Virus record (IMG/VR): IMGVR_UViG_3300042561_001378 | Span: 1 to 64,000 of that record | Origin: a virus | Length of the DNA stretch: 64,000 bases | Reading direction: 5' to 3' (one strand) | Shown here: positions 9,235 through 61,702 of the stretch, one piece after another | Position numbering within the stretch: the first letter of the stretch is position 1 | Layout: every line of letters starts with the position of its first letter | Notes under the pieces: model-generated | Told to the model about the DNA's origin: nothing | The model's database searches: none | The model's input: the letters and a program-made list of their open reading frames with translations, nothing else | Program-made: the position numbers and the translations under genes

Positions 9235-9235
<1 letters not shown>
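8399..9235 (-). CDS. Tail-associated protein
   Basis: 278 aa, coupled ORF in operon. Confidence 0.55.
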
Positions 9236-10990
<1,755 letters not shown>

Positions 10991-10998
<8 letters not shown>

Positions 10999-13465: not shown

Positions 13466-13597
13466 CTGTGCAGGGTGTGCAGGCCATGCAGGCCTCCGTT
13501 CAAATTATTTGGCTGTGTGTGCGGCGGAATTTTTTAGGAAACACACAGCACTTTCACGCTAGAAAACAGGGGTGTTTGCCCTGCATGGCCTGCACAG
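13466..13597 (+). repeat. 132-bp inverted-iteron element, copy A
   Basis: Ends CTGTGCAGG…CCTGCACAG; similar copies at 27409, 57976 (rc), 61571 (rc). Confidence 0.9.
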
Positions 13598-24251: not shown

Positions 24252-24866
24252 ATGAAAACTGCCCAAGTTAAAATCACAGGCCAAGCACCCTACACTCAGT
24301 CTCGGTTCCACGGTGAAGCCAAGCTACCCCGTGAAGGTAGCGAAGATTACGAAAACCGGACATGGCCAGGGAAGGCCCACCTGAATGAGGCTGAACAGGT
24401 CACGATACCTGCGCTGGCTTTCAAAAAGTGCCTTGCAGAAGCTGCAAAGTATCTATCTGAACAGATCCCAGGCAAGGGCAAGGCCACCTATACCAAGCAC
24501 TTCCAGAGCGGGGTGATCGTGCTGACTGATAGCGTTGTCTCTTACAAGGGCCAGCCGGTCACCAAAGCCTTGCTTGACGTTCCCAAAAGCGGATATTACG
24601 GAAACAGAATGTTTGTCCCCTCTGACGGGGTGGCAGGTTCTGGTAAACGGGTGTTTCGCACATTCCCGACCGTTGCTGACGGCTGGGAATGTGTTGTTGA
24701 ATTCTTGATTATGGATGACATCATTACCCAGCCTGTCTTCCAGAAACACCTAACAATGGCTGGGATGTTGATTGGAGTCGGTGCCTTCCGGGTTCGTAAT
24801 GGCGGGGTGATGGGCCGGTTTAAGTCTGAAATTCTGAGTTGGACAGAAGACAAAGAGGTAGCATGA
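24252..24866 (+). CDS. Solitary RAMP/Cas7-like RNA-binding protein (Vipr-like effector)
   Basis: VKITGQAPY first strand, IPALAFKKCL helix, C-terminal Gly-rich loop GMLIGVGAFRVRNGGVMGRF; no other cas genes recognised in the window. Confidence 0.75.
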   Translation: MKTAQVKITGQAPYTQSRFHGEAKLPREGSEDYENRTWPGKAHLNEAEQVTIPALAFKKCLAEAAKYLSEQIPGKGKATYTKHFQSGVIVLTDSVVSYKGQPVTKALLDVPKSGYYGNRMFVPSDGVAGSGKRVFRTFPTVADGWECVVEFLIMDDIITQPVFQKHLTMAGMLIGVGAFRVRNGGVMGRFKSEILSWTEDKEVA

Positions 24867-25387
24867 TGGACGTTTTGACAGACAGCACCCCCGCCTTTGT
24901 GGGGAAACGCTCAATCTACACCCAGCTATTGATCCAGGCCATGCGGGATGTACCAGACGGGGAAACCTTCACCTACACCCAAGCCATGACCATCACTGGA
25001 CTGAGTGCAACCAAGACAAAAACCTATCTCCTTTCAGCGATCCAGTCGCTGTTGAGAGATTACGGCATTGTCTATAACTGTTGCCGAAACGTGGGATATA
25101 CCCGCTTAACGCCTGAAGAAGTGCCCACTGTAGCGAACACCAAAAACCTCACCAAGATGAGGGGAACCACTGGACGTTACAGGGATACCCTTGAAGCTGT
25201 AGACCCTGGCACCCTATCCCAAGAGGCCCAGACTAAGCACACCCTGGGAATGCTCAATGTCCACCTTATGGAGGGCGTCATTAGCCGCAAATCCCAGCGG
25301 GCGATTGGGAAACAGGTAGTGCAGTCAAAACCTGAACTGCCAGACAGAGACAGGATGATCGCCCTGTATAAAGGGCTGTTCTCCTAG
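24863..25387 (+). CDS. Unknown accessory protein coupled to RAMP gene
   Basis: GAGG RBS, ATGA overlap; possible winged-helix N-terminus. Confidence 0.7.
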   Translation: MMDVLTDSTPAFVGKRSIYTQLLIQAMRDVPDGETFTYTQAMTITGLSATKTKTYLLSAIQSLLRDYGIVYNCCRNVGYTRLTPEEVPTVANTKNLTKMRGTTGRYRDTLEAVDPGTLSQEAQTKHTLGMLNVHLMEGVISRKSQRAIGKQVVQSKPELPDRDRMIALYKGLFS

Positions 25388-25496
25388 GGGCAGATCAACT
25401 CAACTCATCTCGCATCTTCTCGTCTCCCCTCGACTCCTCTCATCTCTTCTCTCCTCTCCTCTGCTCGACTCTACTCCACTCTTCTCGACTCAACCG

Positions 25497-25523
25497 AACC
25501 CCGTCAGCGATGGCGGGGTTTCT
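25497..25523 (+). terminator. Repeated terminator hairpin (first of ten)
   Basis: AACCCCGTCA-GCGA-TGGCGGGGTTTCT; GNRA loop in 9 of 10 copies; same stem follows the gene ending at 61501. Confidence 0.75.
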
Positions 25524-25704
25524 CATGGGCGGGGGTGGGGGTATAATGAGGGGCAGATCAACTCGCATCGACTCTGCTCCCCTCATCTCAACTCGCCTCG
25601 CCTCGTCTCATCTCATCTCGACTCTTCTCGTCTCGCCTCAGCTCAGCACAAGGCAACTCAACCGAACCCCGTCAGCGATGGCGGGGTTTCTCATTGCGGG
25701 GGTA

Positions 25705-25713
25705 TGGCATAAT
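25705..25713 (+). promoter_or_regulatory. Extended -10 promoter repeated before array units 3-10 (TATAAT before unit 2)
   Basis: TGGCATAAT 5 nt upstream of the first pentamer. Confidence 0.7.
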
Positions 25714-27408
25714 GGGGGGACAGCTCATCTCCACTCAACTCACCTCCTCTTAACTCGGCTCTTCTCGTCTCCGCTCTCCTCGTCTCCTCTCGACTCTTCT
25801 CGTCTCGCCTCAGCTCAGCACAAGGCGGCTCAACCAAACCCCGCCAGCGATGGCGGGGTTTCTCATTGCGGGGGTATGGCATAATGGGGGGACAACTCAA
25901 CTCTCCTCTCCTCCACTCGGCTCTGCTCCCCTCGCCTCTTCTCGACTCGACTCAACCGAACCCCGTCAGCGATGGCGGGGTTTCTCATGGCGGGGGGTGT
26001 GGCATAATGAGGGGACAACTCGTCTCAACTCCTCTCACCTCGGCTCGCATCTGCTCGTCTCTACTCATCTCTTCTCCCCTCATCTCGGCTCATCTCGACT
26101 CGACTCAACTCAGCTCATCTCTTCTCGTCTCGCCTCAGCTCAGCACAAGGCAGCTCAACCAAACCCCGTCAGCGATGGCGGGGTTTCTCATTACAGGGGT
26201 ATGGCATAATGGGGGGACATCTCAGCTCCGCTCATCTCCCCTCGACTCATCTCGTCTCGACTCGTTTCCTCTCCCCTCGACTCGACTCGACCAAACCCCG
26301 TCATTGCTGGCGGGGTTTCTCATTGCGGGGGTATGGCATAATGGGGGGACAACTCGCCTCGGATCGCCTCACCTCGGCTCAACTCGGCTCGTCTCAACTC
26401 CCCTCGACTCGACTCAACCGAACCCCGTCAGCGATGGCGGGGTTTCTCATGGCAGGGGTGTGGCATAATGGGGGGACAGCTCAGCTCATCTCAACTCCCC
26501 TCGCCTCTACTCACCTCGACTCACATCTGCTCGGCTCATCTCGTCTCGCCTCAGCTCAGCACAAGGCAGCTCAACCAAACCCCGTCAGCGATGGCGGGGT
26601 TTCTCATGGGCAGGGTATGGCATAATGAGGGGACATCTCAGCTCCGCTCGGCTCTGCTCTGCTCGGCTCGCCTCGGCTCATCTCGCCTCACCTCGCCTCT
26701 GCTCATCTCGACTCAACCGAACCCCGTCAGCAATGGCGGGGTTTCTCGTGGGCGGGGTATGGCATAATGGGGGGACAGCTCATCTCGACTCGTCTCGGCT
26801 CAGCTCGTCTCCACTCGACTCCGCTCGCCTCCTCTCGACTCATCTCGACTCCTCTCCGCTCTTCTCGACTCAACCAAACCCCGTCAGTGATGGCGGGGTT
26901 TCTCATTGCGCCACTGCCACACCACCCCAGGCCGTCGCGGGCTTTCCCCTGTCCCCAGATCCAGCACCTCGACCTCGACCCCGCCCGACCTCAGCACTAC
27001 AGCATCGACACACCACCGCCCCACCAGCAGGCTCATCCCCGGTGGGTACAGATAAACCCAGGGGCACCATACCGCCAGCCCCCAGCGATCGCACCGCAGT
27101 CCCCATCGTTCGGCCTGGCCCTTTTCCATACTCATCCCTCGTCCATCCACAGCACCCCCACCCACGGGGTATTAATCTCAGCCTCGCGCCGTACCCAGTC
27201 CAGCGCCACACAGGGCCGCGCATCCTCGCCCCACCACTGACACACCGGGCGAAACGTGATCGACACATCGCCAAACTGCCAGCAGTCCGCCACCTTTACC
27301 CCGCAAGTGTAGTAGCGGAGCCAGGGGTAAAAAGTTCGCAGTAGGGGTGACATGGCGTGGGGCTTGTAGGGCTACCGTGATTCTACCGCAGGCCACCCGG
27401 TCGCAACC

Positions 27409-27540
27409 CTGTACAGGGTGTGCAGGCCATGCAGGCCTCCGTTGAAATTATTTTGCTGTGTGTGCGGCGGAATTTTTTCGGAAACACACAGCACTTTCAC
27501 GCTAGAAACCGGGGGTGTTTGCCCTACACGGCCTGCACAG
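27409..27540 (+). repeat. 132-bp element, copy B
   Basis: Colinear with 13466-13597. Confidence 0.9.
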
Positions 27541-28418: not shown

Positions 28419-28594
28419 TGGTGAAAAGGCGCGACCTGGGCCATAGCAATTCGCCAGAGGTCTTCCCGTCCACGCCAACTGTACCGGGGTTGTGATTGAC
28501 AAGGCCATGGTTGGCAGCCCTACCCTGCGGTATTACAAAGGCTATGGCCCAGGTCGCCCTGCCATTCTACCAAGCGACCCTCCAGCAGTTAGGG

Positions 28595-28624
28595 TTGACA
28601 GTCACGAAAGGTGTTTGTTATAGT
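28595..28624 (+). promoter_or_regulatory. Conserved sigma70 promoter, copy 1
   Basis: TTGACA-GTCACGAAAGGTGTTTGT-TATAGT. Confidence 0.8.
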
Positions 28625-28753
28625 GATTGTATCCGCAACTGAGGACGCCCACCGATGACTGCCCAATGGGCAAGTACAGCATGGCCCGGTTATCCGCGCC
28701 GCCTAGCCCCACCCGCCCATCCCTGATGGGCTATCCACCACTGAACAACCGCC

Positions 28754-28954
28754 ATGAAAATCTATCAATCAAATGTTTCAAAGTTGGTCGAGTCACTTAC
28801 GCCCGCCCAAGTTTTAGCCCTAGGCGGGGTGCTCTTAGAGCATCCTGAATTACTATCAAGCGCTTTGACTCAGGCATACACAGCCATGCCTGAGTCAAAG
28901 CAGATTGAAGCCCGTCAACAAATGAACAGGCTATTTTGTGACCGCATCGAATAA
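28754..28954 (+). CDS. Hypothetical protein
   Basis: Downstream of conserved promoter. Confidence 0.5.
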   Translation: MKIYQSNVSKLVESLTPAQVLALGGVLLEHPELLSSALTQAYTAMPESKQIEARQQMNRLFCDRIE

Positions 28955-29204
28955 TGACCGCCGCGCCAAGTTCATATCACCGCAACCGAGACTAACCATG
29001 CAATACCCTGAATCGCCCGAGTGGCAGGCCCTAGCGCTTGCCTTTGAAGAGTGTATGCAGCTAGAAGGGCAGGGCCTCCCAATGGCTGCTCATATCCAAC
29101 GGCTCAGGGCAGCGAGTGAGGCCAACACCACCCACTGGGGTGATCAATGGCAAAAACACAATGCCATCCGCAACTACCTGAAATCGTGGGACGTTACCCT
29201 ATGA
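28938..29204 (+). CDS. Hypothetical protein
   Basis: In run of small plus-strand genes. Confidence 0.5.
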   Translation: MTASNNDRRAKFISPQPRLTMQYPESPEWQALALAFEECMQLEGQGLPMAAHIQRLRAASEANTTHWGDQWQKHNAIRNYLKSWDVTL

Positions 29205-30805: not shown

Positions 30806-32065
30806 TTAGTAACCTCCTGTAACGGTGATCGTCCAGCCCCGCCCCCGCATGGCATTAATAGCCGCATTACCTGTAGCAGATGGGGCACTGCCACCGCTCT
30901 GGTTAAAGGTGCCGTTGCTGGTGTTGTTGGAGTTAATCGATACCAGGATGTTGTCAATGCTGCCTTGAGTTAGGGCTGTATTTGTGAATGAGTTGGTAAA
31001 GTTGGTGGCTGAGCAACCATTGAAAAAGCTTGCCGGAAATGTAGTTAGCCCTGTGCAACCACGCCAAGCCTCACTAAAGGTTGTTCCGGCTGCTGTATTG
31101 ATTAATGGGAATGAAGTTAGCCCTGTGCAACCTTGCCAAGTAGCAAAAAAGGTTGTTCCGGCTGCTGTATTGATTAATGGAAATGTAGTTAGCCCTGAGC
31201 AAACACGCCAAGCCTCACTAAAGGTTGTTCCGGCTGCTGTATTGATTAATGGGAATGAAGTTAGCCCTGAGCAGCCATTCCAAGCACTAAAAAAGCTTGT
31301 TCCGGCTGCTGTATTGATCAATGGAAATGAAGTTAGCCCTGAGCAATTTCGCCAAGCATTACTAAAGTTTGTTGCGGCTGCTGTATTGATCAATGGAAAT
31401 GAAGTTAGCCCTGAGCAGCCATTCCAAGCACTAAAAAAGCTTGTTCCGGCTGCTGTATTGATTAATGGAAATGAAGTTAGAAAACTAAAATCTCTGAAGT
31501 AGTTTAAAAAGCTCGTAATGCTTGCGAAGTCATTATCTACGGCTCCTTCTGCCACCACAAACGCTTTAATCCGGCCAATGTCTGCGCTGTCAAACGCGCC
31601 CGAAACCCAGTGGATCATCCCTGGGATATTCCGCACAGTTAGCGATGCTGGGATATTGCCGATAGAATTTAATATTCCGGCATTGGTAGCTATTACAATA
31701 TTCGCCCCAGTAGCAGCGGTAGGGCTACCCTGTAGTGTTTTGGTGTAGTCTCCCACTAACCTGGTAGGGCTCGCAGCCAAGGTAGGACGGTTTACAGAAT
31801 TGCTCTGAGTCCAGGTTCGTGCCACCGCATTATCTTTAATCGCCGCTACAGCATCGCCTGTGAGTGCTGGTACGGTTGCCGCAGTATCGCTAAAGGCGGC
31901 AAAGGCATCTAGCCAAATATTAGCTTTGGCAAAGCTGGCGATCGTGGCTTGATCTATCCAGCCCGCAGACGATCTCCGCCCCGCAGGCAGGGCCGTGAGA
32001 GCGGAGAAGTTGAGGCCCGCCGCCCCCGATCGCACCAACCCCAACCCGAGTCCCATGCTTGGCAT
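30806..32065 (-). CDS. BspA/DUF285-like leucine-rich-repeat virion protein
   Basis: Six 24-aa repeats FPLINTAAGTxFxxAWxGCSGLTS (72-bp period). Confidence 0.8.
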   Translation of the reverse strand: MPSMGLGLGLVRSGAAGLNFSALTALPAGRRSSAGWIDQATIASFAKANIWLDAFAAFSDTAATVPALTGDAVAAIKDNAVARTWTQSNSVNRPTLAASPTRLVGDYTKTLQGSPTAATGANIVIATNAGILNSIGNIPASLTVRNIPGMIHWVSGAFDSADIGRIKAFVVAEGAVDNDFASITSFLNYFRDFSFLTSFPLINTAAGTSFFSAWNGCSGLTSFPLINTAAATNFSNAWRNCSGLTSFPLINTAAGTSFFSAWNGCSGLTSFPLINTAAGTTFSEAWRVCSGLTTFPLINTAAGTTFFATWQGCTGLTSFPLINTAAGTTFSEAWRGCTGLTTFPASFFNGCSATNFTNSFTNTALTQGSIDNILVSINSNNTSNGTFNQSGGSAPSATGNAAINAMRGRGWTITVTGGY

Positions 32066-56135: not shown

Positions 56136-58414
56136 GCCGCCTAGCCCAGATCGCTGATACTGACCTTGATGCCCTGCTATACGACATCCGCACAGCTACC
56201 AAAATTTACGACAAACGAGACTTTAATAAAAAAGTAGTGGGCAAGGCTGAGCAAAAAATGCTCAAACTGGTTCAGGCCGTCGCCGTCAAAGAACGCCAGG
56301 ACATTGAAGACGAAGACCGCTACACCCTGCCCAGCGGTATCACTATTGAGCAGCACCTATTTAACTTGACATTTTGCGACAAAGAACGGCCCATCAAGGT
56401 GATTGACCACGCCTTTAGGCAGTACGACCCAGAGTATGGGTACTGGGCCAGCATTCCAGACGAAGAACTAGAACAGCGGGTGCTCCAAAACGCTGAGCTA
56501 TCCCATTACCCACCGACCAAGACCGGGCCAGGGCGATCGCTGGCAACGGCGGCGAATGTGGAAAAGGCGATGAAGTTTGCGGGTAAGAAGTTATTCGCTT
56601 CGACCCACAAGACCAACAGCAAACACCTGATCGCATTTCGGAACTATACCGTTTGCACCAAGACAGGCGACACCAGAGACCACAATCCTGATTACCACAT
56701 CACCACATGCCTACCCTATGACTATGCCCCTGGGGCTGCCTGCCCCCCGGCGATGCTGGGCTACATTGCCAGTAGCTTTGGTGACTCCCAGGTTGAATAC
56801 GTCCGGGCTGCGCTAGGGCTGATCCTCGACCTGACGGCCCCTGACCGGTTTATCCATCTAACGGGTTCAAGTGGTTCTGGCAAGGGGGTTTTTACCCGGC
56901 TGATTATGAAGTTCTTTGGGTCTGAGTCGGTAGGTTCACCCAACAATTTCAAGATTTTTGCCAACCCCGACCAGGTGCACCAATACCTATCCGGGAAAAG
57001 ACTACTGGCCATTGATGACATCGTAGGGTTTATTGGTGAAGAGATTGGCCGGTTTTACACCGCCGTCGAGCGCACCGCGATGAATGCCCGGTGTTTATTC
57101 CAACCCAAGGGCTATACCCAGCAGTTTGATTGCCGGTATACCGTGGCTAGCGTGGGTCAGCTATCGGCCAAATACAGCAACTCTAAAGGCTGGGAACGGC
57201 GGGTTTTCCCATTGCCGACGGTTAGGGCATCCAGGCAAGAGGAGGACGAACGGCTAGAAATTGAACTAGAGAACTGCATAGCCGACATCGTGAGCTGGGC
57301 TTTGGGTCAGGATAAATCCCTGAGAAACGATATCCTACGCCACCCCGCCAAATACAATCCCGCCGCCGCCGAGTACTTCAGAGATGCCGCATTCAGCAGC
57401 AGCAGCGCCTGGGCCTTTATTGACGAATGCCTAGAGCCTAGAATCCCCAGCGTTACCGATGCCTTTGACGACCAGGGCGTCAACGAGACTGAACTTTACC
57501 TGGCCTACAAGGCCTATACCGCTGCCGTGGGTAAGCCGCCGATGAGCCGTGATGGGTTTGTCCATGAGCTGCGCCAGGTGCTGCCCCTGAACTGGGTCGA
57601 TCGCCGGTCGGGTGGCAAGGTCAAGCGGCGGTTTGTTTATATCCGATTGCGCCCTGCCTTTGAGTTTGGTGAGTTTGGGGCGACCTGCAACATGGAGGCC
57701 CGAGGTTATGACGGGGTGCTCCAGTTTAGGGAATGGTCAGCCAAGTATGGGTTTATGCATCCATACGACCCCGGTGATCTTCTTGAGCTTCTTTATGGTT
57801 GCCGCCTCAAGTGGAATGATCACCCACGCCCATGGATAGCTGAGTCAAACGATGGTGAATCGCTAGTGTGCATCCATTCAGATGATGAAATTGGCTCAAG
57901 GCTATTCGCCGAAGTCCCAGCATCCGAGCTAAGTCGATGGCCAAACGACCCACCTCAGCCACCCCCATCAGAGCCTTGTGCAGACCATGCAGGGCAAACA
58001 GGCCTGCTTTCTAGCGTAGAACCCGTGTGTGTTTCCGAAAAAATTCCGCCGCACACACAGCCAAATAATTTCAACGAAGGCCTGCATGGCCTGCACACCC
58101 CGCACAGCACAGACCCAGAGCCCGTTAGCCCGTCACAAGGTTGTTTTGATGGCGATGGGCAAGTGGTGACGCCATGGCTTACCCCTGGCAAACCAGCGTG
58201 GTGGACGGATTTTGAGCAGCGATTGATCGAGGCCACCACCTGGGAGCAATTGCAGCAGGCTAAGACCAAGACCTCAGCGAGCAGGCGCAGCCAGATTATG
58301 AACACCTGGGACAGGGATGGGCGCTACGAATGGCTCAAGGGCAAGGCCGCACGGTTAGAGACTGAGGCTCAGGGCCAGCAACAGCAGGGGCTCAACGTGG
58401 GGGGTATGGAATGA
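56132..58414 (+). CDS. D5/P4-like SF3 helicase
   Basis: IAFRN…HNPDY.IT, GSSGSGKG Walker A, AIDD, W.RR. Confidence 0.88.
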   Translation: MSRLAQIADTDLDALLYDIRTATKIYDKRDFNKKVVGKAEQKMLKLVQAVAVKERQDIEDEDRYTLPSGITIEQHLFNLTFCDKERPIKVIDHAFRQYDPEYGYWASIPDEELEQRVLQNAELSHYPPTKTGPGRSLATAANVEKAMKFAGKKLFASTHKTNSKHLIAFRNYTVCTKTGDTRDHNPDYHITTCLPYDYAPGAACPPAMLGYIASSFGDSQVEYVRAALGLILDLTAPDRFIHLTGSSGSGKGVFTRLIMKFFGSESVGSPNNFKIFANPDQVHQYLSGKRLLAIDDIVGFIGEEIGRFYTAVERTAMNARCLFQPKGYTQQFDCRYTVASVGQLSAKYSNSKGWERRVFPLPTVRASRQEEDERLEIELENCIADIVSWALGQDKSLRNDILRHPAKYNPAAAEYFRDAAFSSSSAWAFIDECLEPRIPSVTDAFDDQGVNETELYLAYKAYTAAVGKPPMSRDGFVHELRQVLPLNWVDRRSGGKVKRRFVYIRLRPAFEFGEFGATCNMEARGYDGVLQFREWSAKYGFMHPYDPGDLLELLYGCRLKWNDHPRPWIAESNDGESLVCIHSDDEIGSRLFAEVPASELSRWPNDPPQPPPSEPCADHAGQTGLLSSVEPVCVSEKIPPHTQPNNFNEGLHGLHTPHSTDPEPVSPSQGCFDGDGQVVTPWLTPGKPAWWTDFEQRLIEATTWEQLQQAKTKTSASRRSQIMNTWDRDGRYEWLKGKAARLETEAQGQQQQGLNVGGME
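57976..58107 (-). repeat. 132-bp element, copy D (in-frame inside helicase)
   Basis: Reverse-complement copy, 44 codons. Confidence 0.85.
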
Positions 58415-61570: not shown

Positions 61571-61702
61571 CTGTGCAGGCCGTGCACCCCAAACACCCCC
61601 GGTTTCTAGCGCAGAAGTCGTGTGTGTTTCCTAAAAAATTCCGCCGCACACACACCCAAATAATTTCAACGGAGGCCTGCATGGCCTGCACACCCTGCAC
61701 AG
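61571..61702 (-). repeat. 132-bp element, copy C
   Basis: Reverse-complement copy. Confidence 0.9.

Follow-up and report, generated by a model that had tools for sequence, protein, structure and literature searches.

VIPR, an RNA-guided DNA-binding system with a small CRISPR-related protein, is described in three preprints that appeared between April and October 2026 (among them bioRxiv 10.64898/2026.04.26.720920 and 10.64898/2026.04.26.720927). Its loci are borne by phages and consist of vipr, vap and RNAs of about 100 nt (vrRNAs), in each of which an invariant 3' tail comes after 9-16 YNNGG repeats; the vrRNAs read double-stranded DNA (dsDNA), passing over one base in each unit, and shut down rival mobile elements (10.64898/2026.04.26.720920). 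The arrays of Escherichia phage SUSP1 were shown experimentally to be RNAs bound by Vipr (10.64898/2026.04.26.720920), and the SUSP1 structures contain a GGY scaffold whose two guanines are each recognised specifically, in syn-guanine pockets (10.64898/2026.04.26.720927). Repeat types given in the discovery paper are YNNGG, NNNGG, YNNNG and NNNNG (10.64898/2026.04.26.720920). Non-canonical arrays of period 5, beside Vipr-like folds, were reported as 21 clusters with 6,318 sequences, the triplets given as examples being GAC/NN, CAC/NN, WGT/NN and TGH/NN (10.64898/2026.10.21.760802). Here a locus in IMG/VR record IMGVR_UViG_3300042561_001378 was analysed. The window is the first 64 kb (64,000 nucleotides) of this single 78,143-bp virus record. 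The locus is read, with a probability of about 0.8, as a phage-borne VIPR system consisting of a vipr-vap operon (24252-25387) and ten CUC-NN guide-RNA genes, with an action like that of SUSP1.

Organisation of the locus

The features are as follows.

24252-24866, + strand: vipr, a 204-aa stand-alone RAMP with an RRM core, a thumb hairpin at about 115-141 and a G-rich loop (GVGAFRVRNGGVMGRF) at about 175-190
24863-25387, + strand: vap, a vap1-like accessory gene of 174 aa; ATGA overlap with the vipr stop
25388-25528, + strand: vrRNA cassette 1; tract 25392-25491, 20 units, short tail; starts right after the vap stop, without a -10 box of its own
25529-25696, + strand: vrRNA cassette 2; tract 25555-25659, 21 units, long tail class; TATAAT -10 box at 25542
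25697-25868, + strand: vrRNA cassette 3; tract 25722-25831, 22 units, long tail; extended -10 box TGGCATAAT; C-G replaces U•G in the hairpin
25869-25990, + strand: vrRNA cassette 4; tract 25894-25953, 12 units, short tail
25991-26193, + strand: vrRNA cassette 5; tract 26017-26156, 28 units, long tail
26194-26325, + strand: vrRNA cassette 6; tract 26219-26288, 14 units, short tail
26326-26452, + strand: vrRNA cassette 7; tract 26351-26415, 13 units, short tail
26453-26609, + strand: vrRNA cassette 8; tract 26478-26572, 19 units, long tail
26610-26751, + strand: vrRNA cassette 9; tract 26635-26714, 16 units, short tail
26752-26908, + strand: vrRNA cassette 10; tract 26777-26871, 19 units, short tail

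The array (25388-26908, + strand) was divided into ten units at a terminator-like motif that bounds every one of them. All tracts between leader and tail are whole numbers of NNCTC pentamers (20, 21, 22, 12, 28, 14, 13, 19, 16 and 19), and summed over the ten tracts 167 of 184 pentamers carry CTC. Information content was 1.57, 1.70 and 1.95 bits at the C, T and C of the triplet; N1 and N2 had 0.16 and 0.01 bits, and all 16 NN dinucleotides are present. Runs of period 5 with at least five units of any triplet were sought through the 78-kb contig and none was found outside the array.

In a preliminary description of the window, 194 pentamers had been counted, 167 of them with CTC. The second number was matched exactly on recount. 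The first was not: 184 pentamers lie between leader and tail, and the earlier counts were one higher per unit because the first tail pentamer (AACCG, AACCA or GACCA) had been included. An unbroken 5-nt register had been claimed, with variation almost confined to the NN positions; no indel was found in any of the ten units, and the values of at most 0.16 bits at NN against 1.57-1.95 bits at the fixed triplet agree with the second claim. The 204-aa open reading frame (ORF) and the coupled 174-aa ORF were as described. The absence of cas genes and of a repeat-spacer array at the locus was likewise confirmed, neither cas1/2/3/6 nor such an array adjoining vipr-vap. Scans against Pfam, NCBIfam and PADLOC placed vipr and vap in no cas family, and the neighbours of vipr are vap and the pentamer cassettes.

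A -10 box was located in nine of the ten units, 26-27 nt 5' of the first CTC on the + strand. It is TATAAT in unit 2 and CATAAT with TG one base upstream (the extended -10 box given above) in units 3-10. A relative with 55% protein identity (L117) has a very similar box and leader. The conserved tail of all ten units consists of AAC, an 11-bp hairpin and a U-run. Units 2, 3, 5 and 8 carry in addition a conserved 3' module with a small hairpin, which gives two tail classes. The positions of -10 boxes and terminators predict vrRNAs of about 94-174 nt. The cassette RNAs had no match in Rfam.

Homology of Vipr, and probably of Vap, to the SUSP1 proteins

No family was assigned to the 204-aa Vipr in Pfam, NCBIfam or PADLOC, and its PHROGs match is a family of unknown function. 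More than 460 relatives, nearly all unnamed, were found in a large protein collection; the nearest (61-94% identity) came from that collection and were not found in the metagenome collection.

The SUSP1 system was located in GenBank KT454805.2, where the Vipr ORF lies at 28474-29061 (− strand). This ORF was identified by its contact residues and by same-strand GGY/NN arrays: of the contact residues published, ten in all, it has nine (H17, K33, E71, M72, R138, C173, D177, W178 and R179), position 175 being V in KT454805.2 and T in the paper, and arrays flank it on both sides on its own strand. The family profile of the window Vipr scored 40 bits against SUSP1 Vipr (hmmsearch) and 54 bits against a homologue in Pseudomonas phage LESphi2, which has GGC/NN arrays upstream. 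HHalign of the window Vipr with SUSP1 Vipr gave a probability of 97.6% (E 3e-12, 168 columns). The RAMP fold that the preliminary description had ascribed to the 204-aa protein was found, together with sequence homology to SUSP1 Vipr.

The 174-aa Vap also matched no family in Pfam, NCBIfam or PADLOC, and in PHROGs only a family of unknown function. A jackhmmer search started from vap reached SUSP1 vap1 (E 9e-18) and the neighbour gene in LESphi2, and HHalign of vap with SUSP1 vap1 gave moderate support (70.7%, E 4e-5). Most related loci contain a vap homologue (99 hits), nearly always directly 3' of vipr. In the AlphaFold2 model of Vap (predicted local distance difference test score 92) a winged-helix-like N-terminal part is followed by a helical bundle; fold matches of this model were weak and all to winged-helix DNA-binding regulators, in agreement with published VIPR work, where type II vap genes are described as predicted DNA binders. 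The accessory gene is probably a vap1 homologue.

Arrays and fixed triplets of the relatives

Loci were fetched from viral (80), genomic (30) and metagenomic (80) sources, yielding 166 distinct Vipr proteins. An array was scored where at least nine pentamers lay within a few kb of vipr. Arrays were found beside vipr in 97 of the 166 distinct relatives, from many phyla, with the triplets GGC (32), GAC (24), CGC (17), CTC (12), GTC (4), CAC (2), AGT (2) and four singletons. It had been suggested earlier that homologues be inspected for pentamer arrays and for their constant triplet; these numbers supply both, the triplet varying from locus to locus.

The vap1-linked Vipr subfamily, 42-58% identical to the window protein, was seen with GGC, GAC, CGC, CTC, GTC, CAC, AGT, GTT, AAT and AAC; read on the vipr strand, almost all of these subfamily triplets (loci L001-L196) have a pyrimidine as their last base.

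Among the genomic relatives the closest three, from the cyanobacteria Microcoleus, Allocoleopsis and Pantanalinema, all have CTC. Loci of the CTC and CAC types share one layout of vipr, vap, cassettes, hairpin and T-run, and in several CTC-type loci (L003, L052, L084) the palindrome HIP1 forms the stem of the vrRNA terminator hairpin. In a quick tree the window Vipr paired with a CAC-type viral protein, its nearest viral relative (Shimodaira-Hasegawa-like approximate likelihood ratio test 96), and a separate CTC-type clade comprised five viral contigs. In a Vipr subfamily with a variable fixed triplet, CUC is the scaffold customary among relatives associated with cyanobacteria.

The residue that follows the GxG of the G-loop corresponds to SUSP1 D177, the reader of G1. 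It is Arg in 50 of 50 GGC, CGC and GTC systems, and other than Arg in 21 of 23 scorable GAC systems and in both CAC systems. Of the 12 CTC systems, 8 have Ser, Thr or Ala there; the window Vipr has Ala. Comparison of phylogenetically independent pairs gave p 0.5 with only 2-4 supported pairs, and the association between residue and triplet is for that reason suggestive only; the residue may track the scaffold, possibly through shared ancestry.

Proposed action and reading of the guides

The mechanism is proposed by analogy with SUSP1. Nine cassettes would be transcribed on the + strand from their own -10 promoters, and all ten transcripts would end in the hairpin and U-run. Vipr protomers would polymerise along the vrRNA, one per pentamer, so that the fixed CUC is buried by Vipr and the NN dinucleotides are presented. 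Joined end to end, the NN would then read dsDNA and leave out one base in each unit (NNxNNx), which in coding DNA would amount to reading codon positions 1 and 2 and skipping the wobble base. Binding would shut down transcription, either of a rival mobile element or of a gene of the host, and the winged-helix Vap would assist in this.

Composition of the guides was compared with a codon-position model trained on the phage's own genes. For the 140 variable-core dinucleotides, the sense codon-position-1-2 model was favoured over bulk by +14.3 bits. The expected score is 14.4±6.4 for codon positions 1-2, −15.1±6.6 for bulk and −11.8±6.5 for uniform composition; antisense or other phases would give −11 to −28. 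The NN composition fits what the wobble-skipping rule predicts, with most guides in mRNA sense. A purine preference imposed by Vipr at N1 could partially mimic the codon-position-1-2 signal.

Targets were sought in several collections. With skips of 0-3 nt, the ten guides had no self-target above the shuffled-guide null in the 78-kb contig and 1.5 Mb of related loci; published VIPR systems are likewise without self-targeting (10.64898/2026.04.26.720920). Exact windows of 9-10 dinucleotides with a 1-nt skip were searched in IMG/VR for guides 1, 3, 5 (two windows), 6, 9 and 10, and an exact window of guide 10 was searched in the metagenome collection; both searches returned chance hits only. Each of these scans gave 0-3 hits, and extension to the full guide gave 1-14 matches outside the core, at about the one in four expected by chance. 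Searches allowing up to three mismatches found nothing for guide 9 in three cyanobacterial genomes, for guide 10 in 401 cyanobacterial genomes, or for two guides of the Microcoleus provirus in 79 Microcoleus genomes.

Two candidates were rejected. L201, the best hit, matches guide 6 at 20 of 20 core bases, but the match runs antisense to the long ORF and places the skipped base at codon position 1; moreover, the two distinct guide 6 hit sequences, in L201 and in the identical pair L200/L202, encode unrelated peptides. That guide 9 spells a C5-methyltransferase motif was not supported.

Several points weigh against the VIPR reading. In the window Vipr, the G1- and G2-reading residues of SUSP1 are replaced (D177 by Ala, W178 by Phe, R138 by Phe), and alignment around H17 is ambiguous. 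None of the collections searched yielded a target, the exact-window and small-sample searches being of low power, and the evidence for the skip rule in CUC-type guides consists of homology and composition. No RNA run contains the stretch, and transcription, RNA ends and formation of a ribonucleoprotein are therefore predictions. A promoter of its own was not recognised for cassette 1, which may be made from the operon transcript. Finally, a simple promoter and terminator scan of the array flagged the unit 2 promoter only and no terminators.

Some of these points bear on a second explanation, in which a VIPR-type ribonucleoprotein follows another rule or acts on another substrate, be it by a different skip length, on an RNA target, or in regulation of the phage's own or the host's genes and not in conflict between phages. 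A scaffold without G, the replaced G-contact residues and the lack of a DNA target under the 1-nt-skip rule are what it would lead one to expect. This explanation is nevertheless unlikely: pentamer period and fold are the same as in SUSP1 and the protein homology extends over the full length, while sense codon positions 1-2 are the one phase that the NN composition fits, as a 1-nt skip predicts. The failure to find targets counts for less here given the low power of the exact-window and small-sample searches.

Strand of the guide RNA

On the + strand the tail hairpin has a folding energy of −18.5 kcal/mol (z −2.9), and on the − strand −12.8 kcal/mol (z −0.6); it is weaker there because a U•G pair, present in nine of the ten hairpins, turns into A·C. 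The hairpin of unit 3, with its compensating C-G, folds equally on both strands. The canonical GGY lies on the vipr strand in SUSP1, in LESphi2 and in the 32 relatives of GGC type, and on that strand the variant triplets of relatives nearly all end in C, which fits the pyrimidine pocket published for position 3 of the triplet. From the + strand boxes, the bias of the hairpin and the vipr-strand triplets, the RNA is therefore taken to be CUC-NN.

Transcription from the − strand would instead give GAG-NN repeats, nearer to published G-containing forms such as NNNNG. The hairpin is near-palindromic, folding both ways in unit 3, and no RNA run contains the stretch; all the same, this explanation is very improbable in view of the A·C mismatch in nine of ten − strand hairpins, the extended -10 boxes and T-run on the + strand, and the orientation of the triplets in SUSP1, LESphi2 and the relatives.

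That the tracts are DNA-level repeats (a protein-binding array or a recombination-prone microsatellite) or a low-complexity coding region, with no guide RNAs, is scarcely credible: long ORFs do cross the array (for example 25866-26468) and expression is predicted only, but such ORFs arise because CTC-rich sequence has no stop codons, a 5-nt period is incompatible with coding constraint, the units have promoter-like boxes and terminator-like hairpins, arrays of fixed triplet and variable NN adjoin vipr in the 97 relatives noted above, and those of SUSP1 were shown experimentally to be Vipr-bound RNAs (10.64898/2026.04.26.720920).

Comparison with known systems

The closest described relatives are the type II VIPR systems of SUSP1 and a Pseudomonas fulva prophage, which share with the window locus a phage-borne two-gene vipr-vap1 operon, the RAMP fold and sequence homology. 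Common to the SUSP1 type and this locus are also an array of separate RNAs (here predicted) built of pentamers with a fixed triplet and NN, an invariant 3' tail, the lack of self-targeting and an NN composition like that of codon positions 1-2. The two differ in scaffold, GGY there and CUC here; in size, with four cassettes of 9-16 units per RNA there and ten cassettes of 12-28 units here; and in the tail, a pseudoknot there and a terminator-like hairpin of two classes here. The G-contact residues are replaced here, and the host is probably cyanobacterial. Proteins of the LESphi2/SUSP1 branch are about 25% identical to the window Vipr.

Canonical arrays are recognised by GGY, or a retained G, in the triplet. 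The fixed triplet here has neither, being CTC in 167/184 units on the strand predicted to be transcribed, and the locus is therefore placed with the VIPR arrays of non-canonical triplet (10.64898/2026.10.21.760802). It resembles these in its period of 5, its non-GGY triplet and the adjoining Vipr-like fold; that report is computational only and does not analyse strand, tail, vap or host. CTC or CUC is not named in the text of 10.64898/2026.04.26.720920 and 10.64898/2026.10.21.760802, motif-listing figures aside, nor are cyanobacteria mentioned in the VIPR preprints.

Class 1 Cas7 proteins (Csm3, Cmr4 and type VII Cas7) are 8-16% identical to the window Vipr and have a period of 6 nt in place of 5, and unlike class 1 CRISPR effectors, whose Cas7 backbone takes up crRNA from a repeat-spacer array and works with Cas5, Cas8 and Cas6 partners, the window locus has no such array or adjoining cas genes. 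Type IV-B CRISPR-Cas (Csf1-Csf2-CysH-Csf3) is similar in being RAMP-based, borne by a mobile element and without a CRISPR array, and occurs on the same contig; it forms a locus of its own, about 44 kb distant, and its proteins are different.

The preliminary description had referred to phage VIPR systems that pair a RAMP with RNAs of alternating GGY/NN and read a gapped DNA target. Such systems are real, with a Vipr RAMP, vap and GGY/NN vrRNAs, and the assignment of the locus to them is upheld by the fold, the homology to SUSP1, the vap homologue and the arrays of relatives. It had further proposed a distinct variant on the grounds of the CUC scaffold and the accessory gene. The scaffold is indeed non-GGY; the accessory gene, however, is the ordinary vap of such systems, and scaffolds other than GGY had been reported before (10.64898/2026.10.21.760802). 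Judged by its sequence, the locus is a genuine scaffold variant of VIPR, a known kind of system and no new class.

The phage, its host and other features of the contig

The 78-kb record encodes TerL, a portal protein, a 1249-aa tape measure protein, a D5-like primase and an SF1 helicase, and has a GC content of 55%. The HIP1 palindrome (GCGATCGC) occurs at 50 sites in 78 kb, against about one expected, and a cyanobacterial host is therefore indicated. Together these features point to a tailed phage of cyanobacteria. Relatives of the terminase gave no closer host, being only 36-37% identical and present in 3 of 401 genomes. Four independent lake or freshwater metagenome studies yielded contigs with identical pieces of the locus; these contigs break inside the array.

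A large serine recombinase (L197:421-1785, − strand) matches the cyanobacterial XisF model (E 2e-73, below the curated cut-off). The XisF-like recombinase suggests an integrating, temperate cyanobacterial phage.

Beyond the end of the window, about 44 kb from vipr, lies an array-less type IV-B-like module (contig 69738-73567; L197:5738-9567). PADLOC identified Csf1 (typeIV_Cas8, 5e-8), Csf2 (typeIV_Cas7, 9e-25) and Csf3 (typeIV_Cas5, 6e-28), and the module also holds a CysH/PAPS-reductase-like gene and a small cupin. The Csf2 ORF (L197:6406-7824) encodes 472 aa, of which type IV Cas7 profiles cover only 222-455, with about 220 residues extra. The phage thus has two RAMP-based systems, and no link between the type IV-B module and the pentamer RNAs was seen.

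A 132-bp element resembling a miniature mobile element is present in four copies of 89-100% identity (blastn), at 13466-13597, 27409-27540, 57977-58107 (− strand) and 61571-61702 (− strand); one copy lies about 500 bp 3' of the vrRNA array. A 419-aa ORF (30806-32065, − strand) contains about six tandem copies of a repeat of about 27 aa (GLTSFPLINTAAGT), and a 587-aa ORF (9235-10998, − strand) contains a collagen triple-helix repeat. Both are probably tail-fibre or receptor-binding proteins.

Significance

The CUC locus leaves the picture of what VIPR is unchanged. It adds a G-less scaffold tied to cyanobacterial relatives, a cleanly punctuated array of ten guides with two tail classes, a hint that the residue after the G-loop GxG tracks the scaffold, and, from composition, support for wobble skipping in a system that is not GGY.

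It is also tentatively proposed, as a possibility that is more doubtful than the VIPR reading itself, that CUC-type Vipr proteins hold a G-less scaffold in a manner unlike the syn-guanine pockets of SUSP1. The triplet would then serve as a clade-specific 'address', set in part by the residue after the GxG, and co-infecting VIPR phages would be insulated from each other's guides. If this were true, Vipr-vrRNA pairs would be orthogonal by nature and could be re-addressed by a rule.

With ten guides, clear predicted promoters and terminators, and relatives with at least six fixed triplets, the locus is a clean natural case of a G-less scaffold. It offers a comparison for the recognition of the scaffold by Vipr, for the insulation of competing systems and for orthogonal Vipr-guide pairs side by side, and it would extend VIPR to the cyanophages of lakes.

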